Source of the DNA: a virus
DNA: 64,000 bases
Direction: 5' to 3' (one strand)
Virus record (IMG/VR): IMGVR_UViG_3300007734_000751
Coordinates: 8,556-72,555 of that record
This document shows, piece by piece, positions 1 to 47,567 of the stretch. The first letter of the stretch is position 1. The number at the start of each line of letters is the position of its first letter. The translations under genes were made by a program, and so were the position numbers. A model generated the notes under the pieces. That model was not told the DNA's origin, searched no databases, and saw nothing but the letters and a program-made list of their open reading frames with translations.

Positions 1-2
1 CC

Positions 3-290
3 ACGGTTGACGCTCTGCCGGTTTCCGGCGCGGCTGTCACGTTCCTCGGCGCTGCTTCTACGCAGTATCCACAGAACTTGATCTATCACCGCGACGCGAT
101 CACCTTCGCCACCGCCGACCTTCTGCTTCCGCAGGGCGTCGATATGGCAAGCCGTCAAGTTCACAATGGCATTTCGCTCCGCGTTGTTCGTCAGTATGAC
201 ATCAACAACGACCGTCTGCCTTGCCGTATTGACGTGCTCTATGGCTACAGCGTGATTCGTCCGCAGATGGCCGTTCGCCTTTGGGGCTAA
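3..290 (+). CDS. Major capsid (P22 coat-like) protein, C-terminal part truncated by window start
   Basis: Last ~70 aa match the C-terminus of 36736..37932 (RIDVLYGYSVIRPQMAVRLWG). Confidence 0.92.
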   Translation, partial: TVDALPVSGAAVTFLGAASTQYPQNLIYHRDAITFATADLLLPQGVDMASRQVHNGISLRVVRQYDINNDRLPCRIDVLYGYSVIRPQMAVRLWG

Positions 291-292
291 TA

Positions 293-314
293 GAGGGGGC
301 GAAAGCCCCTTCTT
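293..314 (+). terminator. Hairpin / putative intrinsic terminator after coat
   Basis: GGGGC-GAAA-GCCCC followed by TTCTT. Confidence 0.55.
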
Positions 315-341
315 ACATCTCATCTTTTGGAGTTCATTAAT

Positions 342-800
342 ATGGCTACAACTACTGCAAATGCGGCTTATCCGCTTGACTCGTTTGGCCCAACCCCCGC
401 CATTCCAAATGGCGATGGTGGCTATCAGCTCGGCGCAGGCAATCTTGTCGAAGCTAACATGCAAGTTGCTACCGTTACATCTGCTACCGGCGACATCACA
501 TTGACCGCCGCGCAGCTTCTTGGCGGTATCATTTCTTGCAATAAGGGCAGCGACGCCGCTCTTACGGTTACGACGCCTACGGCTGCGTTGATCGACACGG
601 GTTTGCCTAGCGCAAAAGTCGGGTCTACTTTTGAAGTAACGATCACCAACAACAATAACAGCGGCGCTTCGTCTACTGTTACGTTCTCAGGTGGCACAGG
701 CGTTACCGTCGTCGGCTCTGGCACTGTTGCTCGGTATGGCGGATCAACGTATCGTTTTATCAAAACGGGCACCGCTGCATACTCAGCTTACCTGAAATAA
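342..800 (+). CDS. Putative capsid cement/decoration protein (Thr/Gly-rich)
   Basis: Directly after coat; GGAG RBS; homologue at 37985..38440. Confidence 0.65.
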   Translation: MATTTANAAYPLDSFGPTPAIPNGDGGYQLGAGNLVEANMQVATVTSATGDITLTAAQLLGGIISCNKGSDAALTVTTPTAALIDTGLPSAKVGSTFEVTITNNNNSGASSTVTFSGGTGVTVVGSGTVARYGGSTYRFIKTGTAAYSAYLK

Positions 801-802
801 TA

Positions 803-830
803 AGGTGGGCTTCGGCCCGCCTTTCTCTTT
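803..830 (+). terminator. Intrinsic terminator
   Basis: AGGTGGGC-TTCG-GCCCGCCT plus T-rich tail. Confidence 0.7.
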
Positions 831-845
831 CCAGAGGGTATTTCC

Positions 846-1316
846 ATGCCAAACACCAAACCAGTTGGTGTTGCTTTTTCTGATCCTGAACTCGTCGCTG
901 GCACAACCATCACGGGCGCAACGATCAGCGGCGGCACCGTTTCTAGCGCTACATCAGTTAGCGCCACTTCTGTTAGCGCAGGCGATCTCACCACAACAGG
1001 CGGTCTTTATCTGAAGACGGCTACTGTGGCGGCTACTGGCTCGACACAAGCCGACGCGGCTTCAGTGTCGGACGGTCTTACGCTTGTAACAGCGGCAGAC
1101 GGCACTAAAGGCATTAAACTTCCTGCGGCGGTTGCTGGCCGCACGGTCATCTTAAAAAATGGCGCAGCCGCTATTTTAAAAGTATGGCCTGCTTCGGGCG
1201 ACGGCATCAACGCAATCACGGTTGATTCCAACTATGTGCTTGCAGCCAATACCTCTTCGTTGCTCATCGCTTATGATGCGACGACCTGGTATTCTGTCCC
1301 GCTGCTTGCTTCTTAA
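846..1316 (+). CDS. Putative virion decoration protein, variant A
   Basis: N-terminal MPNTKxVGVAFSDPEL shared with 38483..38755; remainder unrelated. Confidence 0.65.
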   Translation: MPNTKPVGVAFSDPELVAGTTITGATISGGTVSSATSVSATSVSAGDLTTTGGLYLKTATVAATGSTQADAASVSDGLTLVTAADGTKGIKLPAAVAGRTVILKNGAAAILKVWPASGDGINAITVDSNYVLAANTSSLLIAYDATTWYSVPLLAS

Positions 1317-1321
1317 TATAT

Positions 1322-1349
1322 AGCGGCCTACGGGCCGCTGTATTTCTTT
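1322..1349 (+). terminator. Hairpin / terminator
   Basis: AGCGGCC-TACG-GGCCGCT; equivalent at 38762-38781. Confidence 0.55.
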
Positions 1350-1361
1350 AGAAAGTAACCA

Positions 1362-1565
1362 ATGGCTGTTATTTATTTGAAACACCCCGAACATGGGGTT
1401 AAAGTGGCGTGTCTCGACCTAGAGGCCGAAGCCGACGAAGAGAACGGCTGGATAAGGTTCGACCCAGATGACGACATACAGTGCATACGACCAGATTTGC
1501 GGAGCGTTGAGGCTCCTAGGAGTGTTAGCCGAAGGCGAAACGCCCTCGTCAGAAACAGCGAATGA
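1362..1565 (+). CDS. Small conserved phage protein overlapping the next gene by 98 nt
   Basis: Almost identical ORF at 38801..39004. Confidence 0.6.
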   Translation: MAVIYLKHPEHGVKVACLDLEAEADEENGWIRFDPDDDIQCIRPDLRSVEAPRSVSRRRNALVRNSE

Positions 1566-2184
1566 CGCGCTGTATGCGCTGAATCAAATGATCGACAGTT
1601 GGGACACTGAGCGTTTGGCGGTGTTTTCAACTAAAGATGATGTCTATCTTTGGCCTGCGGGTCAAATATCGCGCACTTATGGCCCTACCGGCGATGTGGT
1701 TGGCGAGCGCCCTGTCCTATTAGATGACTCAACCTATTTCCGCGATCCACAGACCAACGTGTCTTACGGGATCAAGTTTATCAATCAACAACAATATGAT
1801 GGCATTGCTGTTAAAACAGTAACGTCAACTTATCCACAGGTCATGTGGATAAATATGAGCTACCCAAATATTGAAATGTATGTTTACCCAGTGCCGTTGC
1901 GGTTGCTGGAATGGCATTTCATCTCCGTCGAACGGCTAACGCAGCCCGCGACGTTGGCGACTTCGATTCTCTTCCCGCCAGGTTATCTGCGCGCTTTCCG
2001 CTACAATCTAGCCTGCGAGTTAGCGCCTGAGTTTGGTATCGAGCCATCGCCGACGGTTAGCCGTATTGCTATGTATAGCAAGCGCGACTTAAAGCGTATC
2101 AATAATCCTGACGACATCATGGCTCTGCCTTACAGCATCGTCGGCACACGTCAGCGCTATAACATCTACGCGGGCAACTACTGA
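1468..2184 (+). CDS. Head-tail adaptor, P22 gp4-like
   Basis: Position before gp10-like gene; ALRLLGVL and YNLACELAPEFG motifs. Confidence 0.7.
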   Translation: MTTYSAYDQICGALRLLGVLAEGETPSSETANDALYALNQMIDSWDTERLAVFSTKDDVYLWPAGQISRTYGPTGDVVGERPVLLDDSTYFRDPQTNVSYGIKFINQQQYDGIAVKTVTSTYPQVMWINMSYPNIEMYVYPVPLRLLEWHFISVERLTQPATLATSILFPPGYLRAFRYNLACELAPEFGIEPSPTVSRIAMYSKRDLKRINNPDDIMALPYSIVGTRQRYNIYAGNY

Positions 2185-3962
2185 TGAAGACGCCGATCTT
2201 AGGCAGCTCGTATGTAACCAGAAGCCCAAACGCGGCGGACAGCCGCATGGTCAATCTCTTCCCAGAGGTTATACCAGAAGGCGGCAAAGAAGCCGCTTGG
2301 CTTCAACGAGCGCCAGGACTGCGGTATCTTCAAACATTAGGCGCTGGGCCAGTTCGCGGGCTTTGGACGTTTTACAGCGACGCTATAGCCCCTGCCCCTG
2401 GCGAACCTACTAAAGTAAATTATGGCTATGCTATTTCGGCTAAAAAATTATACCGTATTGACTCTGAATTTAACGCTACGGAAATAGGAACTATTGAAGG
2501 CACTACGCAAGTAAATATGACCGATAATGGTCGTCAGATGTTTATTGCCGCCGATACTTATGGATATATCTATAATAGCACGTATCAAACGCTAGTTTGC
2601 AATACCACTAATACAAGCACAACAGTTGTTACCACAGACACAGCTTATGTTTACCCTGGGCAACCAGTTTCAGGCACAGGCATACCAACCGGCGCAACGG
2701 TTGCTAGTGTTACGGACGCGACGCATTTTGTATTGTCTGCCGCTGCAACTGCCACCAATACAGGCGTTACGTTAACATTTACGCCTTTTCTTACGCAGCT
2801 CACAACGCCTTTTGAAGGCGCGGTTGGGTGTGGATTTCTCGACGGTTGGTTCGTGTTTAATCAACCAAACAGTCAGATCTTTTGGGTTATGGATTCTACT
2901 GGCACAACGATTGATCCGTTGTATTTTGCCAGCGCGGAAGGCTCGCCTGACAATCTTGTCACACTGATTGTCGATCACCGCGAGATCTGGCTATTTGGAA
3001 CTAATTCCGTCGAAGTCTGGTATGACGCTGGTCTTCCTGACTTTCCTATGGCGCGCATCCAAGGCGCGTTTAATGAAATCGGTTGTCTTGCCGCCTACTC
3101 AGTTGCCAAGCTCGACAACGGTTTGTTCTGGCTCGGCGCTGACGCGCGCGGTAATGGTATCGTCTACCGCTCAAAAGGCTATAGCGGCGAGCGTGTTTCT
3201 ACCCATGCGGTTGAATGGCAGATCCAACAATACGCTAACCTGTCTGATGCGGTCGGTTATACTTATCAACAGGACGGCCACAGCTTCTATGTCCTAAACT
3301 TTCCGACCGCCAACACGACATGGGTTTATGACGTGGCGACGGGCGCATGGCATGAACGCGCTGGTTGGGAAAATGACACTTACACGCGGACACGCGGCAA
3401 CTGCCAAATGAATTTCAATAATGAAATTGTCATCGGCGATTACCGCACAGGCGAGCTTTATGCCTATGATTTAAATGTATATTCAGAAGCCGGAACACGT
3501 CAAAAGTGGTTACGGTCATGGCGCGCGCTGCCGACAGGCCAGAACGATCTGAACCGCACAGCGCAGCATAGTCTTCAGTTAGATTGTCAAGCGGGCGTCG
3601 GTCTTCCAGGCTACAGCCAAGAGGAAGTCAATGACATTATTTATATTTATGATCGCGCACATGATTATATTCTTGACCGCGCTGGATCTCCTTTAAAAAT
3701 TCGCGATTACGCCAATTATCAGATTACAGTTGGCGCTAATCCACAAGTCATGTTGCGTTGGTCTGATGATGGCGGTCACACTTGGTCAAATGAGCATTGG
3801 AAGTCTATGGGTCAGATCGGCCAGACTGGCTACCGCACGATTTGGCGTCGGCTTGGCATGACATTAAAACTTCGCGATAGAGTATATGAGATCTCCGGCA
3901 CCGACCCCGTAAAGATCGCTATTATGGGGGCCGAGTTGCATGTGAGTCCGACCAATGCCTAA
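2184..3962 (+). CDS. Tail hub / packaged-DNA stabilisation protein, P22 gp10-like
   Basis: AEGSPD, TWVYDVATGAWHER and MLRWSDDGGHTWS motifs. Confidence 0.85.
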   Translation: MKTPILGSSYVTRSPNAADSRMVNLFPEVIPEGGKEAAWLQRAPGLRYLQTLGAGPVRGLWTFYSDAIAPAPGEPTKVNYGYAISAKKLYRIDSEFNATEIGTIEGTTQVNMTDNGRQMFIAADTYGYIYNSTYQTLVCNTTNTSTTVVTTDTAYVYPGQPVSGTGIPTGATVASVTDATHFVLSAAATATNTGVTLTFTPFLTQLTTPFEGAVGCGFLDGWFVFNQPNSQIFWVMDSTGTTIDPLYFASAEGSPDNLVTLIVDHREIWLFGTNSVEVWYDAGLPDFPMARIQGAFNEIGCLAAYSVAKLDNGLFWLGADARGNGIVYRSKGYSGERVSTHAVEWQIQQYANLSDAVGYTYQQDGHSFYVLNFPTANTTWVYDVATGAWHERAGWENDTYTRTRGNCQMNFNNEIVIGDYRTGELYAYDLNVYSEAGTRQKWLRSWRALPTGQNDLNRTAQHSLQLDCQAGVGLPGYSQEEVNDIIYIYDRAHDYILDRAGSPLKIRDYANYQITVGANPQVMLRWSDDGGHTWSNEHWKSMGQIGQTGYRTIWRRLGMTLKLRDRVYEISGTDPVKIAIMGAELHVSPTNA

Positions 3963-4560
3963 TTATGTCGATAACAACACACAAATTCCTGCCGCTCGCG
4001 TTAAAATGAACGACGATTTGACAGGGTTTGTTAATCGACCTTGGTATCGTTGGTTTTTTAATATGTATCAAGCTCTTGAAGCAGGGCGACGATACGGATC
4101 TTTTTATAGCACGGCGACGCAAACAGCGGCTGCGGCGAATACCGCCTACGCCATGACCTACAACGCCACGACTAAGAATAACCAAGGCACTGATCTTACT
4201 TACGGCGTCTATATTGGCACACCAATATCCCGCGTTTATGTAGATAATACAGCTACTTATAACATACAATTTTCCGCGCAATTTGTTAGCACTAACGCCG
4301 CGTCTAAGAACGTAACAATATGGCCTGCTATTAATGGCACGGCGGTTACAGCCTCTGCTACGCAGATTACAATGTCTGGTTCTAGCGGTGCCTATGTTGC
4401 TGCGTGGAATTTTCTGCTAAACCTTAACTCCGGCGATTATTTTGAGTTATATTGGGAAACGACCAATACTAACGTCTCAATTTATGCCGCCGCCGCGTCG
4501 GGGCATATCCCCGCTATTCCTTCGGTCATCCTGACCGTAACAAGTTGTGTAGGTGTTTAA
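3955..4560 (+). CDS. Tail protein (gp26-like position) with C-terminal beta-sandwich
   Basis: RPWYRWF N-terminal motif; YNIQFSAQF and LNSGDYFELYW; homologue at 41394. Confidence 0.55.
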   Translation: MPNYVDNNTQIPAARVKMNDDLTGFVNRPWYRWFFNMYQALEAGRRYGSFYSTATQTAAAANTAYAMTYNATTKNNQGTDLTYGVYIGTPISRVYVDNTATYNIQFSAQFVSTNAASKNVTIWPAINGTAVTASATQITMSGSSGAYVAAWNFLLNLNSGDYFELYWETTNTNVSIYAAAASGHIPAIPSVILTVTSCVGV

Positions 4561-5757
4561 ATGACCGTTGTATCGCCCACAGCCAAAGCTCAATTTATAG
4601 ACGCGGCTGGCGTCCCGCTTAATGGCGGTCTTCTCTATACCTACGCCGCTGGCACGACTACACCGCAAGCTACTTATACGGACTCAACGGGCGCGACAGC
4701 TAATAGCAACCCTATTGTTTTAGATTCGCGTGGCGAAGCCAACATTTGGCTTGGGTCATCTACCTATAAATTCAAACTTTGCGATTCAACTAATACTGAG
4801 ATTTGGACAGTTGATAACGTATCCGCACCAACAACGGCGCTGTCGCCGGTCTTGTCTGGTAACGTCACGATTGACTCTGACTCGGCAGGAACAGCGTTAA
4901 CGATTACTCAGACAGGCTCTGGCCCTGTTCTTAGAGTTCAAGATTCGGTGGATCCTGACGCCACGCCATTTATCATTGATACAACTGGTCAAGTTGGTAT
5001 TGGAACGGCGACACCGGCAAATGCCCTTGATATTGCAGGCGGCACATTTCAGATTTCATCTTCGGCAGGAACATCGCGCACGACTATATCGGCGGACGCT
5101 ACGGATTCAATTTTTGCTGTCACTAATGACCGTAATTTTACAATTAAAACTAATACGGCGACCCGATTAACTATTAATTCTACCGATGCTACGTCTACTG
5201 TTCCTATAGTATTACCCGCTGCCCCAACAACAACTCTTCAAGCGGCTACTAAAGGATATGTTGACGGATTAACTGGCTCACCTTCAGGTATTATCGCACC
5301 TTTTGCCGGAACAACAGCGCCGTCAGGCTGGTTAGCTTGTGATGGTTCTGCGGTATCTCGGACAACTTATGCTACTCTTTTTGCCGCTATTGGCACGACG
5401 TGGGGCGCAGGTAACGGCACGACTACGTTTAACGTGCCTGACCTTCGCGGTATGTTTCTTCGCGGTACAGGCACTAACGCGACTGGATCGTCAAGCGGCG
5501 CTGTTGGCCCATCAGTCGGCACCTATGCGGCAGATACATATCTAAACCATACGCATACAGATAGCGGTCATACGCATACGATAAATATTGGTAATAGTGG
5601 ACTTACTTGGAATACCACAGCTACTTCAGGATCTGTCGTATTCCCTGGTTATTCTACCACTACAGCTACTGGCACCGCCAATATTCAAACATCCACGACC
5701 GGCGGCACGGAAACAAAGCCAAAGAACTATGGCGTGCTATACATCATCAAGACCTAG
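4561..5757 (+). CDS. Tail fibre with phage tail collar domain
   Basis: N-terminal NPIVLDSRGEA; collar motif FAGTTAPSGWLACDG...FNVPDLRGMFLRG. Confidence 0.85.
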   Translation: MTVVSPTAKAQFIDAAGVPLNGGLLYTYAAGTTTPQATYTDSTGATANSNPIVLDSRGEANIWLGSSTYKFKLCDSTNTEIWTVDNVSAPTTALSPVLSGNVTIDSDSAGTALTITQTGSGPVLRVQDSVDPDATPFIIDTTGQVGIGTATPANALDIAGGTFQISSSAGTSRTTISADATDSIFAVTNDRNFTIKTNTATRLTINSTDATSTVPIVLPAAPTTTLQAATKGYVDGLTGSPSGIIAPFAGTTAPSGWLACDGSAVSRTTYATLFAAIGTTWGAGNGTTTFNVPDLRGMFLRGTGTNATGSSSGAVGPSVGTYAADTYLNHTHTDSGHTHTINIGNSGLTWNTTATSGSVVFPGYSTTTATGTANIQTSTTGGTETKPKNYGVLYIIKT

Positions 5758-5774
5758 TATTATAGTGAGGCATT

Positions 5775-6749
5775 ATGGATCCGTTCACACTAGCCCTTTT
5801 AGGTGGCTCCGCTTTAGCTTCAGGCGGTCTAAGCTACATGGGGTCAAAGCAAGCCGCTGGAGCGCAGCAACAGGCCGCGCAACAGTCGGGTATGCTTGGG
5901 CTATTAGCGCAGCAACAGGCTGCGGCTCAAGCTCAACGCATGGCCGAACAGGGCGCTGCGGCTGGGCGTGAGTATTATGATAAAGGCCGCGCGGATCTAC
6001 TAGCTCAAGGCAAACTCGGCGCAGATACGGCGCGCGATTTCTACGGCCAGGGCGTAGGCTTTCAAGAGCCATACATGGGCGCAGGAGCTGGAGCTACCAA
6101 TCAGCTCGCGTCGCTCTTTGGTCAAGGCGGCGCGTATACGCAACAGCCTACCTATGAACAACTCCAGATGGATCCTGGCTATGCCTTCCGGCAACAGCAA
6201 GGCGAGCAAGCGATGCTCAACGCCGCGCGGGGTGGTGGCCTAGCTGGATCGGGCGCTGCGTTAAAAGCTGCTACGCGGTATGGTCAAGAGGCTGGCAGTC
6301 AAGAATATACTAACGCCTATAATCGCTTTATGGCTAACCGCGCGCAGGCAGTTCAGGGTCTTCAGAATCTTGCAGGCACGGGCGCAGGCGCTGCGGGCAC
6401 AGCTTCACAACTCGCCGGTAGCATGGGCAACGCTCTGTCGGGTAATCAATTTAATGTTGGCTCTAACCTCGGCACGATGGCGTCAAACGCTGGTTCGACA
6501 GTCGCTGGTGCATACACCGGCGCGATCCCAACGATGGCGGCGCTTACATCAGCTAACCCATACGGGCAAGCGATGGAGAATGTCGGACAAGCTAGAGCTT
6601 CTGGCTATGTCGGCGGCACATCAGCCCTCAGTAACGCATTAAACAGCGGTATGGGTAATGCGCTGGCGTATAACATGATGAGTAGGTATGCGCCTCAAGG
6701 CCCAACAGGCTCATATCAATTTGGCGGTCAAAATGTCCCTTATTTTTAG
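5775..6749 (+). CDS. Ejection (DNA transfer) protein 1, P22 gp7-like
   Basis: Gly/Ala/Gln-rich; MDPFT start; DPGYAFR motif; position. Confidence 0.7.
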   Translation: MDPFTLALLGGSALASGGLSYMGSKQAAGAQQQAAQQSGMLGLLAQQQAAAQAQRMAEQGAAAGREYYDKGRADLLAQGKLGADTARDFYGQGVGFQEPYMGAGAGATNQLASLFGQGGAYTQQPTYEQLQMDPGYAFRQQQGEQAMLNAARGGGLAGSGAALKAATRYGQEAGSQEYTNAYNRFMANRAQAVQGLQNLAGTGAGAAGTASQLAGSMGNALSGNQFNVGSNLGTMASNAGSTVAGAYTGAIPTMAALTSANPYGQAMENVGQARASGYVGGTSALSNALNSGMGNALAYNMMSRYAPQGPTGSYQFGGQNVPYF

Positions 6750-6758
6750 GTGATTTAA

Positions 6759-8153
6759 ATGGTTGACTACACAATAGCTGCACGCGGCGCACAAGCTAAC
6801 GCAGCGCCTGACTTTGCAAATATGCTGGCGCAATACCAGATGATGGGCGCTCGCGCGCAACAGCAACAGCTTCAACAGCGTGAATTAGACCGTCAGAATC
6901 AATTGATTAGCCTATTAGGCGGCGCGGATATTAACTCGCCTGAAACTATTAACGCGCTTGCGAGAGCTGGGTATTTACCTGAGTCTATCAGCGTCATGGG
7001 CGCGCAACGCCAAGCGGAAGCGCAGCGGGCAGCGGCTGACGCACAGCGCGCTACCGCACTATATCATCAAGGTATGCTCGGCATAGCGCAGGCTAAACTT
7101 CCTTTTGAAGAGCGTAAACTAACGCAGGAAGCTCTTAAAGAAGAACGGCTTGCTGGCGAAGCGGAAACTAAAGCCGCCAAGACGCAGTTAGAGCGCGATG
7201 CAGAGATGTTTAAAACCGCTGAAAATACAGCGGCTAAGATCGTCATGGCTGGCGGCAAAGGCTATAAGCCTTTCTATGATAAATTACCCGATCCTTTGAA
7301 AAATGTATTGCGCCCTGACTACGACGAAGAGGCGTTGACAAACTTCACAACTCAGATGGCGACGTTCCAAGATCAAATTAAACGCCGCGATGAGTATGAG
7401 CTTAAAGAAAGAATTAATCCGGCTACAGGTCTTAAGGAAACAATCGCTATTCCTAAGTATCAGCCAGGAAAAGGCGCTACAGTTGTTCCTGGCAGCGCGG
7501 GCGGGATTGCGGATAAGTATAAATTTTTGGCTGGCCCTGAAGGAACAGGTACGGTCATTCGCACAAATGAAGCTGCGGGGACTGCCGAGTCCTTACCGCT
7601 TACCAGCGGCGGTATCCCCGCACCGCGTGTTCAAGCTACGCCAGAAGGCAAATTAACGCCGCGCGTTGATATGGCCGCGCCTCCTGGCGCTCCGGCTAAT
7701 GTGCCTGAACCTGTGCCTGGAACGCCTGAATTTACTAACCGTCGGTTTGCTAATCAAGTATTTAAAGATATCGAATACAATCCTAAGACAGGGGATGATC
7801 GGCTATCTACGTTAATTAAGAAATCTACTAGCGGCGGTCTTGAAGCGGCGGCGTCTGGCGTCAGCGGATTCTTTGGTCGATCTACGACGGGCGCTAAAGC
7901 TATTGCTCAGATCGGGACGCTTGTTAACGATATTGTCTTGGAAAGAATGAACGGCAAGTTAGGCGCTGGCGTATCTAACGAAGATCGTGAGTTCTTTAAA
8001 TCCTTGCAAGGTAATCTCGACAATCCGTCGATTCCTGTCGAAACACGATTGGCAGCATGGAATGAAGCCAAACGACGCATGGCAAAATATGCGGGCGACG
8101 CTGGTGCCGCACCAAAAGCAGGCGGCATTATTGACTTTGGGGATCTGAAATAA
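6759..8153 (+). CDS. Ejection protein 2 (gp20-like position)
   Basis: Gln/Ala-rich helical protein; GAGVSNEDREF motif; homologue at 44209. Confidence 0.65.
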   Translation: MVDYTIAARGAQANAAPDFANMLAQYQMMGARAQQQQLQQRELDRQNQLISLLGGADINSPETINALARAGYLPESISVMGAQRQAEAQRAAADAQRATALYHQGMLGIAQAKLPFEERKLTQEALKEERLAGEAETKAAKTQLERDAEMFKTAENTAAKIVMAGGKGYKPFYDKLPDPLKNVLRPDYDEEALTNFTTQMATFQDQIKRRDEYELKERINPATGLKETIAIPKYQPGKGATVVPGSAGGIADKYKFLAGPEGTGTVIRTNEAAGTAESLPLTSGGIPAPRVQATPEGKLTPRVDMAAPPGAPANVPEPVPGTPEFTNRRFANQVFKDIEYNPKTGDDRLSTLIKKSTSGGLEAAASGVSGFFGRSTTGAKAIAQIGTLVNDIVLERMNGKLGAGVSNEDREFFKSLQGNLDNPSIPVETRLAAWNEAKRRMAKYAGDAGAAPKAGGIIDFGDLK

Positions 8154-10057
8154 TGGATGTTCGGCTCCCTGACGGCACAGTCATAAAAAATGTTCCTGAA
8201 GGAACAACCAAAGCGCAGCTTGTAGAAAAGCTGAAAGCTAATGGGTATGACATTGGCGCGCTTGAAGCCAAGCCATCCGAGCCTCAAGAGATCGTTACGA
8301 CGCCGCAAAAGATAGCGGGCTATCTTGGCGAAACGATTGGAAATATCCCCGCGAGCACACTTAATCTCGCGCAAGGCGTTTACGAGACTGCGACGCACCC
8401 ACTTCAGACAGCGGAAGCATTAGGACAGGCTGCGATGAGTCCTGTCCAGACGGCTAAAGCTATTGGTGGATATTTTGGCGAACGCTATGCGTCGCCGTTA
8501 GAGACATTCAAGCAAGATCCTGTCGGCGTTTTATCTGACATATCCGCTATCGCAGGTGGTGTCGGAGCTGGCGCGCGTTTAGCCGGCAAAGGCCCATTAG
8601 CGCAGGGCGCTATGAAATTAGCGCAACAAACCGCACCTTCAAATGTTTTAGCGGGCATGGTGCAGGCTCCTTTTAACGCCGCCGCGCCTACTTACGAGTT
8701 CGCGCGTAACATGATGGCTCCTAAGTATGCAGCCTACATGGCGGCGACTGAGGGCAGAACGCCTGAAATTATCTCGGCGCTTCGCAGCCCACAAGCTCAG
8801 ATTGTTCCTGGCGCTATGCCTACGGCGGCTCAAGCCGCTGCGCCTGTTGGTGCGGCTAAGTTCCAGGCTCTCGGCGCTACAGCCGCCGAGACAATGCCAT
8901 CTGAATATATGCAACGTGCTCAAGAGCAAGGCGCGGCGCGGCTAAAAGCTTTAAGAACTGTAGCTGGATCTGAGCGCACGCTAGAAGCGGCTAAAGAAGG
9001 CCGGTCTAAAGAAGCTGCGTATCTTTACGGAAAAGCAGATAAGATGCTTGTGCCTGAAGATAAGAAATTAGCTGAGTTACTCACACGTCCTTCGATGGAC
9101 AAAGCGCTTGCTCGCGCTGAAGAGTTAGCCGCAGAGCGCGGCCATACCTTCCAGCTTGGCGAGACTAAACCTGCTACGACTGTAGAGTCCGCTATCGTCG
9201 ATGAGTATGGTAACCCGATCAAGCGCACGATTCCTGCGACAACCGCTAAGTATCCTGTTAGCAGCTTGCACGCGCTCAAGATGTCTATGGACGATCTTAT
9301 ACGCAATCCAGAACGCTTTGGCATCGGCGCATCTGAAGCCGCTGCTATAGGTAACACGCGTAAGCAATTAATTAGCTGGATCAAACAAAAATCACCGCTG
9401 TATGAACAAGCGCGCGGACAATTCGCAAAACGTAGCGGCCCGATCAATCAAATGGAGATCGGCCAATATCTTGAAAGCAAATTGCTGGCACCGTTGAGCG
9501 AAGAAGCGCCGCAACGCGCAGGTGTGTTTGCGACGGCTGTTGAGGCTGCACCGCGCACGATCAAACAAGCGCTTGAAGGTGGTGGGCCTCGGTTTGAGAA
9601 ACTGTCTCAGGTTTTAACGCCCGCACAAGTAAAAGCTATTGAGAATATCCAAGCTGACTTAGCGCGCGAGGCGCAAGCAGATCGTATGGCGCGTGTGGCT
9701 AGAGAAGCTGCGCCTGACGCGACTGAAATAACCAAAGGTGTGTTGCCGCGTGCTCCTAACTGGATGAACCGCATCACATCGACCGTCAATAAAATAATGG
9801 ATAAATCGCAGGGCGCGCTTGATCGTAAATATGCGCTTGAGATCGCAACTGAGATGTTGGATCCCGAACAGACTGCAAAGGTTCTTGAAGCCGCTGTGGC
9901 GTATGCGGAAAAGACTAAAAAGACCGCAGAAAAGATAAAAGGCATGGGCGCAGGTGTAAAAGACACTGTGCAGAAACTTGGCCCCGCGATCTCTGGAGCT
10001 GTGACCGTTCAGAACGTGATGCGCCGGAGAGACAACCAGAACGCGATGGCAAGATAA
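8153..10057 (+). CDS. Ejection protein 3 (gp16-like position)
   Basis: Large Ala-rich helical protein closing the tail module; homologue at 45621. Confidence 0.65.
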   Translation: MDVRLPDGTVIKNVPEGTTKAQLVEKLKANGYDIGALEAKPSEPQEIVTTPQKIAGYLGETIGNIPASTLNLAQGVYETATHPLQTAEALGQAAMSPVQTAKAIGGYFGERYASPLETFKQDPVGVLSDISAIAGGVGAGARLAGKGPLAQGAMKLAQQTAPSNVLAGMVQAPFNAAAPTYEFARNMMAPKYAAYMAATEGRTPEIISALRSPQAQIVPGAMPTAAQAAAPVGAAKFQALGATAAETMPSEYMQRAQEQGAARLKALRTVAGSERTLEAAKEGRSKEAAYLYGKADKMLVPEDKKLAELLTRPSMDKALARAEELAAERGHTFQLGETKPATTVESAIVDEYGNPIKRTIPATTAKYPVSSLHALKMSMDDLIRNPERFGIGASEAAAIGNTRKQLISWIKQKSPLYEQARGQFAKRSGPINQMEIGQYLESKLLAPLSEEAPQRAGVFATAVEAAPRTIKQALEGGGPRFEKLSQVLTPAQVKAIENIQADLAREAQADRMARVAREAAPDATEITKGVLPRAPNWMNRITSTVNKIMDKSQGALDRKYALEIATEMLDPEQTAKVLEAAVAYAEKTKKTAEKIKGMGAGVKDTVQKLGPAISGAVTVQNVMRRRDNQNAMAR

Positions 10058-28823: not shown

Positions 28824-30942
28824 TGACGTTGAAGGAGCCGGAAAAGTCTCCGATACCCCAGACCATGATCGTCTGGCTACTATGCGGCATCGCTTTACCG
28901 TTGCCTCTGCCGCTTATAGCGATTCACGGGAAGACGAATTAGATGACCTTCGTTTTATGGCCGGAAGTCCTGACAACAGTTGGCAGTGGCCAGCCGACGT
29001 CTTGGCGACCAGAGGCGCGGTGCAGGGCCAGACGATCAACGCGCGGCCATGCCTGACGATTAACAAGCTGCCACAGCATGTTAGGCTGGTAACAAATGAA
29101 CAACGACAGAACCGCCCCTCCGGCAAAGTCATCCCAGCGGACGATAAAGCCGACGTCGCGGTCGCAGAAGTCTTTCAAGGTATTGTCAGACACATCGAAT
29201 ATTTGTCGGACGCGGACGTTGCTTATGATACCGCCTGCGACAATCAAGTTACCTACGGCGAAGGTTATATCCGAATCCTTACGGAATATTGCCGCGAAGA
29301 CTCGTTTGACCAAGACCTGAAGATCGGTCGCGTTCGCAACAGCTTCAGCGTCTATATGGATCCGATGATTCACGATCCATGCGGATCAGACGCCGAGTGG
29401 TGCTTCATAACCGAAGACATTCCGAAAGAAGAGTATGAGCGTCTTTATCCTGACGCGCTGCCGATTTCTGTGATGATGTCGCAGGGCGTTGGCGATCAGT
29501 CACTTAGCATGTGGATGAGCCAGGAAACCGTCCGTATTGCTGAGTATTTTTATATCGAACATCAGAAGCGCAAGCTGAACCTGTATCCAGACAATATGAC
29601 GGCGTTCGATGGCACGCCGCTGGATAAGCAGCTCAAGGCGATGTTTGGCAAGCCGCTGAAATCTCGCACAAGCGAGCATCGTCAGGTGAAATGGCTAAAG
29701 ACCAACGGCTTCGAGGTTCTTGAAGAGCGCGATTGGGCGGGTAAATGGATTCCTGTCATCCGCGTGGTTGGCAATGAGTTTGAGGTAGACGGGCAGTTAT
29801 ACATCAGCGGTTTGGTGCGAAACGCCAAAGACGCGCAGCGCATGTATAACTACTGGGTCAGCCAGGAAGCAGAGATGCTGGCGCTGGCTCCGAAAGCACC
29901 GTTTATCGGATATGGGGGTCAGTTTGAAGGATACGAAACAAACTGGAAAACGGCCAATACGAACAACTGGCCCTACCTCGAAGTCAACCCCGACGTCACC
30001 GATGGCGCTGGAAATCCTCTGCCATTACCTGAACGCGCGCAGCCACCTATGGCGCAAACCGGCCTTATCCAGGCCAAAATGGGCGCTGGGGAAGATATCA
30101 AATCCACCACGGGTCAATACGACAGCTCCATTGGTGCGACCAGTAACGAGAGGACGGGTCGTGCGATTTTGGCTCGGCAAAACCAAGGCGATACCTCCAC
30201 ATACCACTATGTGGACAATCTCGCCCGTGCGGTCAGATATACGACAAGACAACTGGTAGATCTGATCCCTAAGATCTACGACACGGAACGCGTGGCACGC
30301 ATCGTCGGACTCGACGGCGAAGTGGGTATGGTGAAAATCAACCCAAATCAGCCTGAACCAGTGCGCGTCATCAAGGATCCGATCACGGGTCTGGACATTG
30401 AAAAGATCTACAACCCATCGGTCGGCACATACGACGTGGTAGTGACGACAGGCCCAAGCTACGCGACCAAGCGCCAAGAGGCGATGGAAGCGATGCAGAT
30501 GATCTTGCAGACCAACCCGCAGCTCTGGGGTGTGGCAGGCGACCTGTTCATCAAGAACATGGACTGGCCTGGAGCGCAGGAAATGGCGGCTCGGTTCGCC
30601 AAGACGCTCGATCCGAAGGTTCTGGATAATACGGATGAGTCGCCAGAAGCGCAGATGATGCGCGCTCAGATGAACGACATGGCGAACCAGATGGAACAGA
30701 CTGCGGCGTTGGTTCAGCAACTGCAACAGTCTTACGATATGCAGAAACTGGCGATTGACGAGCAAAATACGCAGATTAAGGCGTATGACGCAGAGACAAA
30801 ACGTCTTCAGGCCATGCAAAGCGGGCTGTCGCCTGAACAGATCCAAGACATCGTAATGGGAACGGTCGCAGCGGCGATGGATACGGGCGATATTGTCCCG
30901 CGTAACACGCCGATGCAACCACAACTGCCAGGATTAGAATAA
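28813..30942 (+). CDS. Portal protein, P22 gp1-like
   Basis: 709 aa; RPCLTINKL, AKDAQRMYNY and GPSYATKRQE motifs; Gln-rich barrel tail. Confidence 0.92.
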   Translation: MAASDVEGAGKVSDTPDHDRLATMRHRFTVASAAYSDSREDELDDLRFMAGSPDNSWQWPADVLATRGAVQGQTINARPCLTINKLPQHVRLVTNEQRQNRPSGKVIPADDKADVAVAEVFQGIVRHIEYLSDADVAYDTACDNQVTYGEGYIRILTEYCREDSFDQDLKIGRVRNSFSVYMDPMIHDPCGSDAEWCFITEDIPKEEYERLYPDALPISVMMSQGVGDQSLSMWMSQETVRIAEYFYIEHQKRKLNLYPDNMTAFDGTPLDKQLKAMFGKPLKSRTSEHRQVKWLKTNGFEVLEERDWAGKWIPVIRVVGNEFEVDGQLYISGLVRNAKDAQRMYNYWVSQEAEMLALAPKAPFIGYGGQFEGYETNWKTANTNNWPYLEVNPDVTDGAGNPLPLPERAQPPMAQTGLIQAKMGAGEDIKSTTGQYDSSIGATSNERTGRAILARQNQGDTSTYHYVDNLARAVRYTTRQLVDLIPKIYDTERVARIVGLDGEVGMVKINPNQPEPVRVIKDPITGLDIEKIYNPSVGTYDVVVTTGPSYATKRQEAMEAMQMILQTNPQLWGVAGDLFIKNMDWPGAQEMAARFAKTLDPKVLDNTDESPEAQMMRAQMNDMANQMEQTAALVQQLQQSYDMQKLAIDEQNTQIKAYDAETKRLQAMQSGLSPEQIQDIVMGTVAAAMDTGDIVPRNTPMQPQLPGLE

Positions 30943-31304: not shown

Positions 31305-31311
31305 GGAAATC

Positions 31312-31581: not shown

Positions 31582-31586
31582 TCTAA

Positions 31587-35332: not shown

Positions 35333-35334
35333 AA

Positions 35335-35763: not shown

Positions 35764-35897
35764 TGAAAATTGAACTTACATCGCAAGAATGGACTTATAT
35801 TTTAAATGTGTTGGCTCAACGCCCTTATGGCGAAGTTGTTGAACTCATAGCCAAGATACAGAAACAAGCCGTTGACGATGTTTCTGTAAACGAGTAA
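35763..35897 (+). CDS. 44-aa protein, not in ORF track
   Basis: Hand translation MKIELTSQEWTYILNVLAQRPYGEVVELIAKIQKQA...; TGATG coupling. Confidence 0.6.
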   Translation: MKIELTSQEWTYILNVLAQRPYGEVVELIAKIQKQAVDDVSVNE

Positions 35898-36728: not shown

Positions 36729-36735
36729 TTAAGTC

Positions 36736-43219: not shown

Positions 43220-44206
43220 ATGGATCCGTTAACATTAGGCTTATTGATGGGTGGCACGTCGTTAGCGACGGGCGGACTCAATTATCTAGGTTCCAAGCAA
43301 GCCGCTGGGACGCAGAGCGCGGCTGCACAACAGTCCGGCATATTTGGTATGCTGGCTCAACAGCAAGCGCTTCAGCAAGCCAAACAAATGGCCGAACAAG
43401 GCGCTGCGGCTGGACGTGAGTATTATGATAAAGGCCGCGCGGATCTTTTAAACCAAGGTAAGATCGCAGCGGATACGACTAATCAATTTTATGGGCAAGG
43501 CATAGGCTATCAACAGCCTTATATGCAAGCTGGCGAACAAGCGACGAATCAGCTCGCGCAACTTTACGGCCCTAATGGCGCTTATACGCAGATGCCAACC
43601 ATCGCTCAGATTGAAATGGATCCTAGCTATGCGTGGCGCACCCAACAGGGGCAACAAGCACTTCTTAACGCAACGCGGGCTGGCGTAGGCGGCGCTAATG
43701 CCGGATCTGGTGCAGCGGGTAAAGCTTTTATTAACTACGGTCAGAACGCTGCCAGCCAAGAATATGCTAGTGCGTATAATCGCTTTATGGCTAACCGCGC
43801 TCAAGCTGTTCAAGGTCTTCAAAACTTGGCCGGCACAGGCGCAGGTGCAGCTCAGACAGCGACAGGTCTAGCCGGTAGCATGGGCAATGCGTTGTCAGGC
43901 AATCAATTTAATCTCGGTTCCAATCTCGGTACGATGGCGTCTAACGCTGGTTCGACGGTCGCCGGCGCTTACACAGGCGCGATTCCAACGGTCGCGGGGC
44001 TTGCGTCCGCTAATCCTTACGGCACAGCGGCTGAGAATGCTGCCGCAGCTCGCGCTTCAGGATATGTTGGCGGCACGTCAGCGCTGGGCAACGCCCTACA
44101 GGGCGGCGTCAACGGTATGTTGGCTTATAGCATGTTAAACCGTATGCCGCAGCAAGCCACTAATTTTGGCGCTTATGGGCCGCAACCAACTTATAATGGG
44201 CTTTAA
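43220..44206 (+). CDS. Ejection protein 1
   Basis: Homologue of 5775..6749. Confidence 0.7.
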   Translation: MDPLTLGLLMGGTSLATGGLNYLGSKQAAGTQSAAAQQSGIFGMLAQQQALQQAKQMAEQGAAAGREYYDKGRADLLNQGKIAADTTNQFYGQGIGYQQPYMQAGEQATNQLAQLYGPNGAYTQMPTIAQIEMDPSYAWRTQQGQQALLNATRAGVGGANAGSGAAGKAFINYGQNAASQEYASAYNRFMANRAQAVQGLQNLAGTGAGAAQTATGLAGSMGNALSGNQFNLGSNLGTMASNAGSTVAGAYTGAIPTVAGLASANPYGTAAENAAAARASGYVGGTSALGNALQGGVNGMLAYSMLNRMPQQATNFGAYGPQPTYNGL

Positions 44207-44208: not shown

Positions 44209-45621
44209 ATGCCAGTTGACTACACAATAGCTGCACGCGGCGCACAGGCTAACACAGCTCCTGACTTTGCGAATACACTCGCTCAGTATCAGATGATGGG
44301 CGCACGCGCACAGCAAGAACAGCTTCAACAGCTTCAAACGCAAAAGCTTCAACAAGAGCAACAACAACAGAACATGTTGCTTAATACTTTGCGTAATTTG
44401 GATATTAACTCACCTGAAGCGATTAATGTTTTAGCGCGCGGCGGCAATCTATCTGAAGCTTTGTCTGTTCAACAAGCTCAACGGCAAAATGAAGCGCTTC
44501 GCGCCCAAACGGCAGCGCAAAATGCGACCGCTGGATATCACACAGGTATGCTTGGTTTAGCTCAAGCTAAACTTCCGCTTGAGCAAAGAAAGCTAGAGCA
44601 AGAAGCTCTTAAAGAAGAACGTCTTGCAGGAGAGGCTGAAATTAAGTCTCAAAAAACTGCATATGAGCGCGACGCTGAAGTATTAAAAAAGCATGAAAAC
44701 CTTGCTGCTAAAATCGTTATGAACGGCGGTAAAGGATATGATAATTTTTATAAAAATGCGCCAGATGAATTAAAGCCATATCTTTCGCCGAAATATGACG
44801 AAGATATGCTCACCAATTTTACAACTCAAATGTCGACGGTTCAGGAAAACTTGAAGCGCGCGCATGAGTTTGAGTTAGTTGATAGGATCAATCCTCAGAC
44901 TGGTCTTAAAGAAAAAATTGCTGTTCCTAAATACGCGCCTGAAAAGGGCGGCAAAGCTGTTGCTGGCACGCAAGGCGTTGTTCAAGAAAAATACGGATTT
45001 ATGCCTGGGCCTGAAGGAACTGGCACTGTTATTCGTACCAATCCTCTAGCTGGCACCGCCGAGTCTTTACCGCTTACCAGCGGCATACCTGCGCCCCGCG
45101 TCCAAGCGCCGCCTGAAGGCAAGCTAACGCCCCGCGTTGATATGAACGCGCCTCCTGGCGCTCCGGCTAACGCTCCTGAACCTGTGCCTGGAACGCCTGA
45201 ATATACTAATCGTCGTTTTGGCCGTGAAGCTCTAGAGGCTATTGGTTTTAATCCGCAGACCGGCGAAGACCGCGTGTCAAAATTGATTAGCCAATCTACA
45301 AGTGGTGGATTGCAATCCATCGGTGCAGGCGTTCGCGGGTTTCTTGGTAAAGGCACGTCAGGTGCTCAAGCTATTGGTCAGATCAAACCAATCATCAATA
45401 ACCTTATTTTGGAAAAAATGAATGGTAAGCTCGGCGCAGGCATATCAAACGAAGACCGCGAGTTCTTTAAATCGACGCTTGGCAATCTAGATGACCCAAG
45501 CATTCCGTCAAACGTAAGACTTGCATCTTGGGAAGAGGCTAAACGCCGGCTTGCTAAGTATGCTGGCGGTATGGCCGCACCATCTGATAACCGTCCATCT
45601 CTTAACGAGATCTTTAAATAA
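44209..45621 (+). CDS. Ejection protein 2
   Basis: Homologue of 6759..8153 with a different C-terminal peptide. Confidence 0.65.
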   Translation: MPVDYTIAARGAQANTAPDFANTLAQYQMMGARAQQEQLQQLQTQKLQQEQQQQNMLLNTLRNLDINSPEAINVLARGGNLSEALSVQQAQRQNEALRAQTAAQNATAGYHTGMLGLAQAKLPLEQRKLEQEALKEERLAGEAEIKSQKTAYERDAEVLKKHENLAAKIVMNGGKGYDNFYKNAPDELKPYLSPKYDEDMLTNFTTQMSTVQENLKRAHEFELVDRINPQTGLKEKIAVPKYAPEKGGKAVAGTQGVVQEKYGFMPGPEGTGTVIRTNPLAGTAESLPLTSGIPAPRVQAPPEGKLTPRVDMNAPPGAPANAPEPVPGTPEYTNRRFGREALEAIGFNPQTGEDRVSKLISQSTSGGLQSIGAGVRGFLGKGTSGAQAIGQIKPIINNLILEKMNGKLGAGISNEDREFFKSTLGNLDDPSIPSNVRLASWEEAKRRLAKYAGGMAAPSDNRPSLNEIFK

Positions 45622-47567
45622 TGGCTAATTTCTCCGCTAAGATCCAGACAGCGCGCGATGCCGGATACTCTGATGAAGAGATCAAACGGTTTCTTATGTC
45701 TACGCCTGAAGCGGAGAAAGCCAAAGAAGCTGGCTATACAGACGTAGAGATCGCGTCACATTTTGGATTAGCGCCATCAGAACCTAAAGAGATCGTTACG
45801 ACTCCGCAAAAGATTGCCGGATATGTTGGCGAGACATTAGGCAATATTCCTGAAAGCACGCTTAATTTTGCTCAAGGCATTTATGAAACCGCCACCAATC
45901 CTATGCAAACGGTGGAAGCATTAGGACAGGCCGCGATGAGTCCTGTCCAGACGGCTAAAGCTATTGGTGGTTATTTAGGTGAACGCTACGGGTCGCCTAC
46001 ACAGGCATTAGAAACTTTTAAGACCGATCCTGTTGGCGTGTTGTCTGATATTTCTGCGGGTGCAGGTATTGGTGGATTGACTGCGCGGCTTGGCGGTAAA
46101 GGCGTTTTAGCTCAGAATGCAATGCGTTTAGCTGAACGCACTGCGCCTTCAAACGTATTAGCCGGCGCTTTACAAGCTCCTTTTAATGCCGCCGCGCCTA
46201 CTTATGAGTTTGCGCGCAACATGATGGCTCCTAAGTACGCAGCATACATGGCGGCGACTGAGGGCAGAACGCCTGAAATTATCTCGGCGCTTCGCAGCCC
46301 ACAAGCGCAGATCGTTCCTGGCGCTATGCCTACAGCGGCGCAAGCCGCTGCGCCTGTTGGTGCGGCTAAGTTCCAGGCGCTCGGCGCTACAGCCGCCGAA
46401 ACAATGCCGTCCGAATATATGCAACGTGCTCAAGAGCAAGGCGCGGCGCGTCTAAAAGCATTAAGAACTGTAGCTGGATCTGAGCGCACGTTAGAAGCGG
46501 CTAAAGAAGGCCGGTCTAAAGAAGCTGCGTATCTTTACGGAAAAGCAGATAAAATGCTTGTACCTGAAGATAAAAAACTAGCTGAGTTACTAACGCGTCC
46601 TTCGATGGACAAAGCGCTTGCTCGCGCTGAAGAGTTAGCCGCAGAGCGCGGCCATACGTTCCAGCTTGGCGAAACTAAACCTGCTACGACTGTAGAGTCC
46701 GCTATCGTCGATGAATATGGCAATCCGATCAAGCGCACAATTCCTGCAACGACCGCTAAGTATCCTGTTAGCAGCTTGCACGCGCTCAAGATGTCTATGG
46801 ACGATCTTATACGCAACCCAGAACGCTTTGGCATCGGCGCATCTGAAGCCGCTGCTATAGGTAACACGCGCAAGCAATTAATTAGTTGGATCAAACAAAA
46901 ATCACCGCTGTATGAACAAGCGCGCGGTCAGTTTGCCAAGCGTAGCGGGCCGATCAATCAAATGGAGATCGGCCAATATCTCGAAAGCAAATTGCTGGCA
47001 CCGTTGAGCGAAGAAGCACCGCAACGCGCAGGTGTATTTGCGACGGCTGTTGAGGCTGCACCACGCACGATCAAACAAGCGCTCGAAGGTGGTGGGCCTC
47101 GATTCGAGAAACTGTCTCAAGTATTAACGCCCACACAAGTAAAAGCTATTGAGAATATCCAAGCTGACTTAGCGCGCGAGGCGCAAGCAGATCGTATGGC
47201 GCGTGTGGCTAGAGAAGCTGCGCCTGACGCGACTGAAATAACTAAAGGTGTGTTGCCGCGTGCTCCTAACTGGATGAACCGCATCACATCGACCGTCAAT
47301 AAAATAATGGATAAATCGCAGGGCGCGCTTGATCGTAAATATGCGCTTGAGATCGCGACTGAGATGTTGGATCCCGAACAGACCGCAAAGGTTCTTGAAG
47401 CCGCTGTGGCATATGCGGAAAAAACTAAAAAGACCGCAGCAAAAATAAAAGGCATGGGCGCAGGTGTAAAAGAAACTGTGCAGAAACTTGGCCCCGCGAT
47501 CTCTGGAGCTGTGACCGTTCAGAACGTGATGCGCCGCAGAGACAATCAAAACGCGATGGCGAGATGA
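45621..47567 (+). CDS. Ejection protein 3
   Basis: Homologue of 8153..10057 with a different N-terminal domain. Confidence 0.65.
   Translation: MANFSAKIQTARDAGYSDEEIKRFLMSTPEAEKAKEAGYTDVEIASHFGLAPSEPKEIVTTPQKIAGYVGETLGNIPESTLNFAQGIYETATNPMQTVEALGQAAMSPVQTAKAIGGYLGERYGSPTQALETFKTDPVGVLSDISAGAGIGGLTARLGGKGVLAQNAMRLAERTAPSNVLAGALQAPFNAAAPTYEFARNMMAPKYAAYMAATEGRTPEIISALRSPQAQIVPGAMPTAAQAAAPVGAAKFQALGATAAETMPSEYMQRAQEQGAARLKALRTVAGSERTLEAAKEGRSKEAAYLYGKADKMLVPEDKKLAELLTRPSMDKALARAEELAAERGHTFQLGETKPATTVESAIVDEYGNPIKRTIPATTAKYPVSSLHALKMSMDDLIRNPERFGIGASEAAAIGNTRKQLISWIKQKSPLYEQARGQFAKRSGPINQMEIGQYLESKLLAPLSEEAPQRAGVFATAVEAAPRTIKQALEGGGPRFEKLSQVLTPTQVKAIENIQADLAREAQADRMARVAREAAPDATEITKGVLPRAPNWMNRITSTVNKIMDKSQGALDRKYALEIATEMLDPEQTAKVLEAAVAYAEKTKKTAAKIKGMGAGVKETVQKLGPAISGAVTVQNVMRRRDNQNAMAR

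Follow-up and report, generated by a model that had tools for sequence, protein, structure and literature searches.

A cassette spanning the junction of two putative ejection-protein genes is exchanged as one unit in freshwater podophages and in the P22/Sf6 group

The closest described counterparts of the gene junction reported here are found in phages P22 and Sf6, whose ejection proteins gp20 and gp16 have to match. According to the accessible parts of Leavitt et al. (PMC10883804), P22 carrying Sf6 gene 7 alone works, P22 carrying Sf6 gene 16 alone or Sf6 gene 20 alone forms no plaques, and P22 carrying Sf6 genes 16 and 20 together gives a normal yield. Sf6 gp16 alone is packaged into P22 all the same, and the authors' conclusion was that an interaction of gp16 with gp20 is obligatory and fails between P22 and Sf6 partners. 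Loss of the last 33 gp20 residues is lethal, and genes 16 and 20 show strong mosaicism and contain "very different intragenic modules" (Casjens & Thuman-Commike 2011, as cited in PMC10883804). In the accessible portion of a preprint (bioRxiv 10.64898/2026.09.03.749273), gp20 in situ is a dodecamer whose C-terminal "plinth" abuts the cytoplasmic membrane; the plinth is proposed as a template for gp16, of which six copies fit best, and gp20 residues 436-471 and the gp16 N-terminus are unmodelled. In T7, as far as the available text of a further paper goes, gp16 residues 157-228 bind, stabilize and tape together the C-terminal regions of gp15 (PMC8954989). Here we analyzed a 64-kb stretch of viral DNA (hereafter the window), part of the 72,555-bp IMG/VR virus record IMGVR_UViG_3300007734_000751 (positions 8,556 to 72,555), which carries two collinear, related podophage genomes head to tail: A (about 1-37,640) and B (37,645 to the end of the window), 66-88% identical in DNA where they can be aligned by blastn. 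At the junction of their second and third putative ejection-protein genes, E2 and E3, a block has been replaced across the gene boundary, and we propose that it encodes two protein parts that probably dock onto each other.

E2 of A ends in KYAGDAGAAPKAGGIIDFGDLK and E3 of A starts with MDVRLPDGTVIKNVPEGTTKAQLVEKLKANGYDIGALEAKPSEPQEIVTT, while in B the corresponding sequences are KYAGGMAAPSDNRPSLNEIFK and MANFSAKIQTARDAGYSDEEIKRFLMSTPEAEKAKEAGYTDVEIASHFGLAPSEPKEIVTT; in both genomes, the E2 stop and the E3 start overlap by one base. The translations agree with the ends quoted in a preliminary description of the locus, made from the DNA sequence, which also held that some 200 bp had been replaced across the gene boundary. 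This was borne out by blastn, which left A 8098-8271 and B 45569-45772 (about 175-205 bp) unaligned between flanks of 77.7% identity over 6.9 kb and 87.4% over 2.5 kb, and pairwise DNA alignment agrees. On the E2 side, homology stops after KYAG, leaving 18 residues in A or 17 in B, of which "AAP" is alignable; the conserved, functional-looking part of this swapped end, which we call the tail, is its last 7-9 residues. On the E3 side, homology is back at PSEPxEIVTT after 40 residues in A or 51 in B, which we call the head. Since the ends of the two heads align weakly in BLASTP (EKLKANGY-D with EKAKEAGYTD), their truly unrelated part is about residues 1-24 in A and 1-31 in B. The tail and head of A are named T1 and H1, those of B T2 and H2. 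Outside the block, E2 of A and B are 69% identical overall. E3 is 93% identical over 617 aligned residues, with long identical stretches after residue ~198, so that most of E3 is indeed near-identical, as had been claimed.

How strictly tails and heads go together was determined in relatives from IMG/VR and metagenome loci (numbered L below), gathered with E2 or E3 as a query, with the H1 head alone or with the H2 head alone; 80 of 324 H1 loci, 80 of 137 H2 loci and 80 of 493 P22-like loci found were examined. Junctions were extracted by a script that required an upstream frame of at least 250 codons ending -45 to +15 nt from the start of a long downstream open reading frame (ORF). Identical junction DNAs were collapsed, contig-edge junctions with shorter upstream frames were excluded, and the T1 tail was scored as [IV][DEN][FWYL][GNSTKD].[LM] plus 1-2 residues. 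A T1 tail (consensus [IV][IV]DF[GN]xLx) precedes the H1 head ("MDVRLPDG..") in 56/56 distinct junctions, H2 heads in 0/50 and H3 heads, a third class, in 0/6 (n = 112). Another 119 distinct junctions have other heads and mostly belong to other gene pairs, such as E1/E2; the four among them that match the T1 pattern are H1 heads whose start codon was placed too far upstream, and once these were fixed none of the 119 showed a T1 tail before a non-H1 head. The anchored scans gave the same picture, with a T1-type tail at 80/80 of the H1 loci listed (324 found) and T2-type tails at all 39 distinct junctions with upstream sequence among the H2 loci listed (80 of 137), five further junctions having no usable upstream ORF and one locus no start. 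Tails seen before H2 heads are RPSLxEIFK, RPPLSSF[YF]xx, ILTD[IL]FGxKK, SNVGDFFK and KELRSILHGE, and H3 heads follow EFL[ST]YIQRMEVGKR. Further classes are represented by L152 (tail AAIAARGGR, head MADYSDIISQYGG), by the cultured phage DSL-LC05 (tail AARVLKGK, head MAENPFAQFA) and by L024. A genome scan gave one locus, in a metagenome-assembled genome, with an E2-like ORF and no recognizable E3. The T1/H1 pair occurs in 22 clusters of E2 bodies (the C-terminal bodies) at at least 60% identity (10 at at least 30%) and in 24 clusters of E3 bodies. It has therefore been retained while its surroundings were replaced or diverged beyond alignment.

The P22-like phages have the same arrangement. P22 gp20 ends in SAGGSYTSKSGIKFTVE; Sf6 gp12, its counterpart, ends in TTGSNFSSLWGD, and Sf6 gp13, the counterpart of gp16, begins with MAKAWKDVIASPQYQ. 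P22 and Sf6 therewith carry different cassette classes. Among 79 usable of the 80 loci listed (493 found), which reduce to 32 distinct junctions, the P22-type tail SG[IV][KQ]FTV[EK] comes with the head M(M)[KE]VTANGKTF in 24/24 and the Sf6-type tail SLWGD with the head MAKAWK in 8/8, and none combines a tail of one type with a head of the other. Free assortment of tails and heads in relatives, which the preliminary description had named as the outcome that would speak against a pair, was thus not seen in any of the 112 + 32 distinct junctions.

The exchange can be followed in pairs of loci that are near-isogenic outside the cassette. Between L006 (H1) and L003/L078 (H2), identity is 96.5% in the E2 body and 93% in the E3 body; the E2 body of L179 (H1) is 87-90% identical to those of L066/L057 (H2), and its E3 body is 83% identical to that of L066 and 53% to that of L057. 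Among P22-like loci, the cross-class pair L357 and L377 has an E2 body identity of 96% and an E3 body identity of 98.7%, and the E2 bodies of L348 and L417/L371 are 100% identical. The insert lies between KYAG and PSEPQEIVTT in the L006 comparisons, between RGKAGE and GEVGFL in those with L179, and between QYNVNVG and EEPQQPEQSLMQ in the P22-like pairs. Since these boxes differ between pairs, different flanks carry the same kind of insert, and the tail is always included in it. In the window, the boxes are KYAG and PSEPQEIVTTPQKIAGY (8085-8096 and 8273-8300), and the position noted in L179 is ~1112-1130. Short conserved boxes of this kind resemble the recombination "linkers" that the modular view of phage evolution postulates. 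The claim that tail and head are exchanged as one unit is thus upheld in three lineages, and, as judged from these natural swaps, both protein bodies tolerate either cassette. Different tails occur on E2 bodies with 96-100% identity; the partner of the tail is therefore not the E2 body, and the head is the only element seen to co-vary with it.

We gauged selection on both halves by Nei-Gojobori proportions of synonymous (pS) and nonsynonymous (pN) differences. For the seven codons of the T1 motif, pS was 0.70 and pN 0.29 (39 distinct DNAs); in a paired set of 53 distinct DNAs, the motif gave 0.66 and 0.29, and the seven linker codons directly upstream gave 0.70 and 0.59. The first 33 H1 codons gave a pS of 0.76 and a pN of 0.15 (50 distinct DNAs), and the RPSLxEIF subtype of T2 gave 0.78 and 0.28 (24 distinct DNAs). 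With synonymous sites near saturation, the tail/head pairs must be old, and since the pN of T1 is half that of the linker at a similar pS, the tail is constrained as a protein and is not a recent passenger. The constrained T1 positions include [IV][IV]D[FWY] and L, at which many synonymous codons are in use. Both halves are therefore under purifying selection, independently of the protein bodies to which they are attached. The ribosome-binding site of E3 lies within the last E2 codons (8136-8155, TTTGGGGATCTGAAATAATG), where Gly-Asp codons give GGGGA, which resembles a Shine-Dalgarno (SD) sequence. The Gly at T1 position 5 is encoded by GGG in 24/26 distinct Gly-carrying tails, giving GGGGA or GGGAG, and it is replaced by Asn where a 9-nt spacer separates E2 and E3.

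The reading we favor, and consider probable, is that the cassette encodes a cognate tail-head docking pair. E1, E2 and E3, as counterparts of P22 gp7, gp20 and gp16, would, once released from the virion, build a tube that reaches from the tail into the cytoplasm. E2 ends in a fast-evolving, probably flexible linker followed by the 7-9 residue tail peptide, and E3 begins with the head, a module of 25-50 residues. The tail may dock on the head at the point where the periplasmic tube of E2 adjoins the inner-membrane assembly of E3, plausibly by strand addition or helix packing, and the unrelated classes (T1/H1, T2/H2, T3/H3, P22 type, Sf6 type and others) would be mutually orthogonal pairs. As both halves sit between short conserved boxes, one recombination would move both, and the connector would stay functional. 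In an AlphaFold2 (AF2) model, the H1 head is a short beta-hairpin and a helix at residues 20-29, with a predicted local distance difference test score (pLDDT) of about 70 for residues 1-30. Complex prediction of the last 124 residues of E2 with the first 60 of E3, using class-1 alignments, gave an ipSAE of 0.10 in two runs without controls, which is no verdict either way.

A two-fold internal repeat was seen in every head class (window 8153-8272 and 45621-45773; L152; L341 5863-5940). The copies are LPDGT and VPEGT in H1, AGYSDEEI and AGYTDVEI in H2 (which bears out the internal AGYxDxEI repeat reported earlier for B), DYAAIAKRFGA and DYGALARQFGA in H3, DYSDIISQ[YF]GG twice in L152 and NPFAQFA twice in DSL-LC05.

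Several points weigh against a docking pair. Since tail and head adjoin on the DNA, their co-occurrence alone is weak evidence, linkage alone predicting few crossed pairs, and since the classes have no mutual homology, a crossed pair could arise only by illegitimate recombination in a stretch of a few bases. Part of the tail conservation acts on the nucleotides, because the Gly codon GGG forms the ribosome-binding site of E3. In P22, AlphaFold3 with gp16 residues 1-205 places the extreme C-terminus of gp20 "towards the membrane, wrapping around the plinth" (accessible part of bioRxiv 10.64898/2026.09.03.749273), which cannot readily be read as contact with the N-terminus of gp16, and the P22 mutations that escape SieA map elsewhere in what is accessible of this literature (gp20 338-350, gp16 532-546). 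Furthermore, E2 and E3 have no demonstrable sequence homology to gp20 and gp16, so that the transfer of knowledge from P22 rests on synteny, the homology of E1 and the junction layout common to both. Stronger arguments for the docking pair than co-occurrence are that purifying selection acts on the tail in a class-specific way and that the breakpoints lie where they do.

One alternative is that the E3 head is the unit exchanged, for whatever reason, and the adjacent E2 tail is carried along by linkage, the nearest usable homology lying upstream of it. The tail would then be conserved for reasons that have nothing to do with the head, be it the ribosome-binding site and the coupling of E3 translation or some general function of the E2 C-terminus. 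Such an account would explain the stop/start overlap, the SD-like GGGGA/GGGAG and its preferred GGG codon, and the change from Gly to Asn at junctions with the 9-nt spacer, and because the classes share no homology inside the block except AAATAATGG, internal recombinants would not be expected. We nevertheless regard it as unlikely. The many synonymous codons at constrained tail positions, together with a pN half as high as in the neighboring linker while pS is the same, point to selection on the protein, and neither a generic role nor an SD constraint predicts that each head class should have its own unrelated tail motif. Linkage also fits poorly with the different tails found on almost identical E2 bodies, where nothing but the head was seen to change with the tail.

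A similarly small chance is given to a shared third partner, an external component on the inner side of the periplasm contacted by both tail and head, for instance an inner-membrane host protein of the YajC kind, or an exclusion protein of the SieA kind that recognizes both; cassette diversity would then serve adaptation to hosts or evasion of exclusion. The accessible P22 literature has the C-terminal end of gp20 and gp16 meeting at the cytoplasmic membrane, YajC needed for DNA entry, SieA acting at the inner membrane on gp16/gp20 (PMC10883804; bioRxiv 10.64898/2026.09.03.749273), and genes 16 and 20 among the most variable virion genes (PMC10883804). The same literature reports that P22 with Sf6 genes 16 and 20 infects Salmonella normally while both SieA types continue to exclude it (PMC10883804, Table 4), so that the class, in this instance, is not tied to the host and gives no escape; the mismatch left by replacing one gene alone is not tolerated in this host. 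The two freshwater classes were, moreover, found in samples with the same IMG/VR taxon-oid prefix, here even in one record. Very unlikely, in our view, is a contact made inside the capsid, where a bond of tail and head would hold E3 on E2 so that the two are packaged together or leave through the portal in order. It would suit the storage of the P22 ejection proteins together near the portal, described in the accessible parts of PMC4992974 and PMC8402733, and it is at odds with the packaging of Sf6 gp16 into P22 particles carrying P22 gp20 (PMC10883804) and with the ability of gp16 from another particle to complement in trans outside the cytoplasm (PMC10883804; bioRxiv 10.64898/2026.09.03.749273). 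On this evidence, which comes from the accessible parts of the two sources, a pre-formed tether is required neither for packaging nor for function.

Should tail and head indeed dock, one extension can be considered, though we hold it to be doubtful. According to the accessible P22 literature, gp16 diffuses and can serve the gp20 channel of another particle in trans. The cassette classes might then be ejection-channel compatibility groups, "privatizing" E3 among co-infecting relatives, and one E3 head may bind two E2 tails. If so, compatibility groups would let the E2 and E3 bodies recombine freely with the connector still matched, and two tails per head would bridge the 12-to-6 subunit mismatch of P22 gp20 and gp16.

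The features of the module in both genomes are listed in Table 1.

Table 1. Coordinates of the E1-E2-E3 module and of the exchanged block in genomes A and B (window positions)
Feature	Position	Strand	Basis
E1 of A, homologue of P22 gp7 (first ejection protein)	5775..6749	+	phrog_598 "DNA ejection", E 4.4e-18
E2 of A, 464 aa, in the position of P22 gp20 (periplasmic tube protein)	6759..8153	+	ORF, translation, P22 synteny
Variable linker of the E2 tail of A (DAGAAPKAGG), start of the swapped block	8097..8126	+	homology to B and L003 stops after KYAG
T1 tail motif IIDFGDLK, E2 C-terminal peptide	8127..8150	+	upstream of every H1 head examined
H1 head, E3 residues 1-40 (MDVRLPDGTVIKNVPEGTTKAQLVEKLKANGYDIGALEAK)	8153..8272	+	kept on otherwise unalignable E3 bodies
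E3 of A, 634 aa, positional equivalent of P22 gp16	8153..10057	+	ORF, translation
E1 of B	43220..44206	+	ORF, collinear with A
E2 of B, 470 aa	44209..45621	+	ORF, translation
Swapped E2 tail of B (GMAAPSDNRPSLNEIFK)	45568..45618	+	translation, DNA alignment, breakpoint mapping
T2 motif RPSLNEIFK	45592-45618	+	T2-type tails before all H2 heads with upstream sequence
H2 head, E3 residues 1-51 of B, two AGYxDxEI repeats	45621..45773	+	translation; alignment of 16 diverse H2 heads
E3 of B, 648 aa	45621..47567	+	ORF, translation, comparison with E3 of A

The identity of the module is indicated by its surroundings and by E1. Each genome has a P22-family coat protein (PF11651, E 1e-41) and a scaffold (phrog_8865), and the virion genes run in the order Ad3-like adaptor, Hc3 hub (phrog_578, E 4e-112), Collar-domain fibre, E1, E2, E3, with a lipoprotein and then a GH108 endolysin downstream of E3. 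P22 gp7 matches the same family as E1 (phrog_598, E 2e-95). E2 gave no match to the gp20 family phrog_917, the only family found being phrog_33352 of unknown function, and profile comparison of E2 with P22 gp20 by hhalign revealed no homology (probability 0.1%). Its AF2 model has a mean pLDDT of 59.8, long helices at 20-53, 73-163 and 323-445 and values below 50 for the last 17 residues, which are thus predicted to be disordered, and Foldseek with this low-confidence model retrieved nothing from the Protein Data Bank (PDB) at E ≤ 0.001; sequence searches with E2 and E3 against PDB structures gave no match either. E3 has no PHROG family (P22 gp16 being in phrog_770) and, in A or B, no Pfam domain; a match to RepB_primase_C stayed below threshold (16.3 bits against a cut-off of 26.1). 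E3 of A is 44% identical to a "putative DNA transfer protein" of DSL-LC05, which has the same gene order and in which E1 and E3 are annotated as "DNA transfer proteins". With the region as a blastn query, the lysozyme gene was the sole match in cultured phages, and tblastn with E2 found no cultured relative.

Some observations on neighboring parts of the module are recorded here. The first ~33-38 residues of E2 (window 6759-6860 and 44209-44320; MPVDYTIA.R.A.AN...DF.NMLAQYQMMGARAQ) are 75-77% identical in L062-L077, in which E2 is otherwise unalignable, and this N-terminus may be a matching E1-E2 connector with one dominant class here; in P22, residues 1-47 of gp20 sit within the gp7 channel (accessible part of bioRxiv 10.64898/2026.09.03.749273). 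The C-terminal two thirds of E3 (~8684-9984 in A, ~46190-47490 in B) are 93-99% identical in DNA, with ~300 residues identical in protein, while neighboring DNA is 55-85% identical, which suggests a recent exchange or very strong constraint. In the freshwater locus L018 (~2018-2050), the tail KSGVTYTVED and the head MPTYTINGKR..TEDQI resemble the P22 pair, and the E3 body is 43% identical to that of the window; judging by these likenesses, L018 would link the enterobacterial and freshwater groups through the cassette and not through the protein bodies. In class 3 (L039-L046, L050, L162), the E2 C-terminus bears an H1-like hairpin-helix pattern (GFKVTDPSGSSHTFSDRKQA.EFL) and the E3 head MVDYAAIAKRFGAK looks like the N-terminus that E2 usually has, MPVDYTIAARGA; modules may have moved across the gene boundary.

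As to the record itself, the 8.5 kb preceding the window (record 1-8555, L425) are 85-88% identical to A 30042-37640, and the order in the record is therefore the end of a B-like genome, A, and the first 26 kb of B. That A and B, genomes of ~37.6 kb, share one record could mean that the heteroconcatemer is genuine or that two co-occurring strains were joined in assembly. No integrase was found among the seven ORFs scanned, and a DNA polymerase A and a primase are present. A prophage reading of the tandem genomes was dropped, the 430-aa reverse-strand ORFs being SNF2 helicases and not integrases.

The contact between tube protein and inner-membrane protein lies in the part of the P22-type DNA-delivery channel that the in situ structure leaves unmodelled, and for it P22 genetics, in the accessible accounts, shows only that matching is required. 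For this contact our analysis points to a short candidate determinant that can be tested, namely the final ~10-30 residues of E2 together with the opening ~40-60 of E3, in a pattern common to uncultured freshwater phages and the classical P22/Sf6 group. If the cassette is indeed an orthogonal connector, it would explain how very mosaic genes stay functional, offer a handle for engineering hybrid phages and illustrate neatly that a functional unit can extend over a gene boundary. The preliminary description knew of no earlier account. For a junction-spanning tail/head cassette we found none in the searchable literature, whose coverage leaves out the main comparison of P22-like mosaicism (Casjens & Thuman-Commike 2011). 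The claim was nevertheless too strong in part, for the need for matched gp20 and gp16 had already been shown genetically (PMC10883804) and a contact between the gp16 N-part and the gp15 C-part was known in T7 (PMC8954989), as the accessible parts of both papers make clear.

Compared with known systems, the window is closest to P22 gp20/gp16 (Sf6 gp12/gp13), whose genes have the same position in a P22-type cluster, similar sizes and the same one-base stop/start overlap, and P22-like phages share the junction layout with two non-crossing classes. The head of P22 gp16 also shows the hairpin-then-helix pattern of H1 (F.FPDGTS.EDI and NVPEGTTKAQL), the profile match by hhalign being weak (15 columns, E 0.0012, probability 19%). 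What differs is that T1/H1 and T2/H2 are unlike the P22 and Sf6 classes in sequence, that the E2 and E3 bodies have no detectable homology to their counterparts, and that the P22 literature, in its accessible parts, does not map specificity to tail and head. The T7 gp15-gp16-N tunnel ("molecular tape", PDB 7K5C as cited in PMC8954989) has the same topology, with the N-terminal part of the third protein on the C-terminal part of the second. In T7, however, the contact is made by a large surface, gp16 157-228, located after the transglycosylase domain, and exchangeable classes are not described in the accessible part of that paper, whereas in the window a terminal peptide and a ~40-residue head are the candidate contact. 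Unlike T7 gp16, E3 of A and B show no transglycosylase domain in Pfam. The logic of the cassette, finally, recalls the docking domains of polyketide synthases and nonribosomal peptide synthetases, in which a short C-terminal tail binds the N-terminal head of the next polypeptide. There too, the coding sequences of the two halves straddle a gene junction, and the halves form orthogonal classes that tolerate pairwise transplantation; the analogy is one of logic only, between unrelated proteins with unrelated biology.

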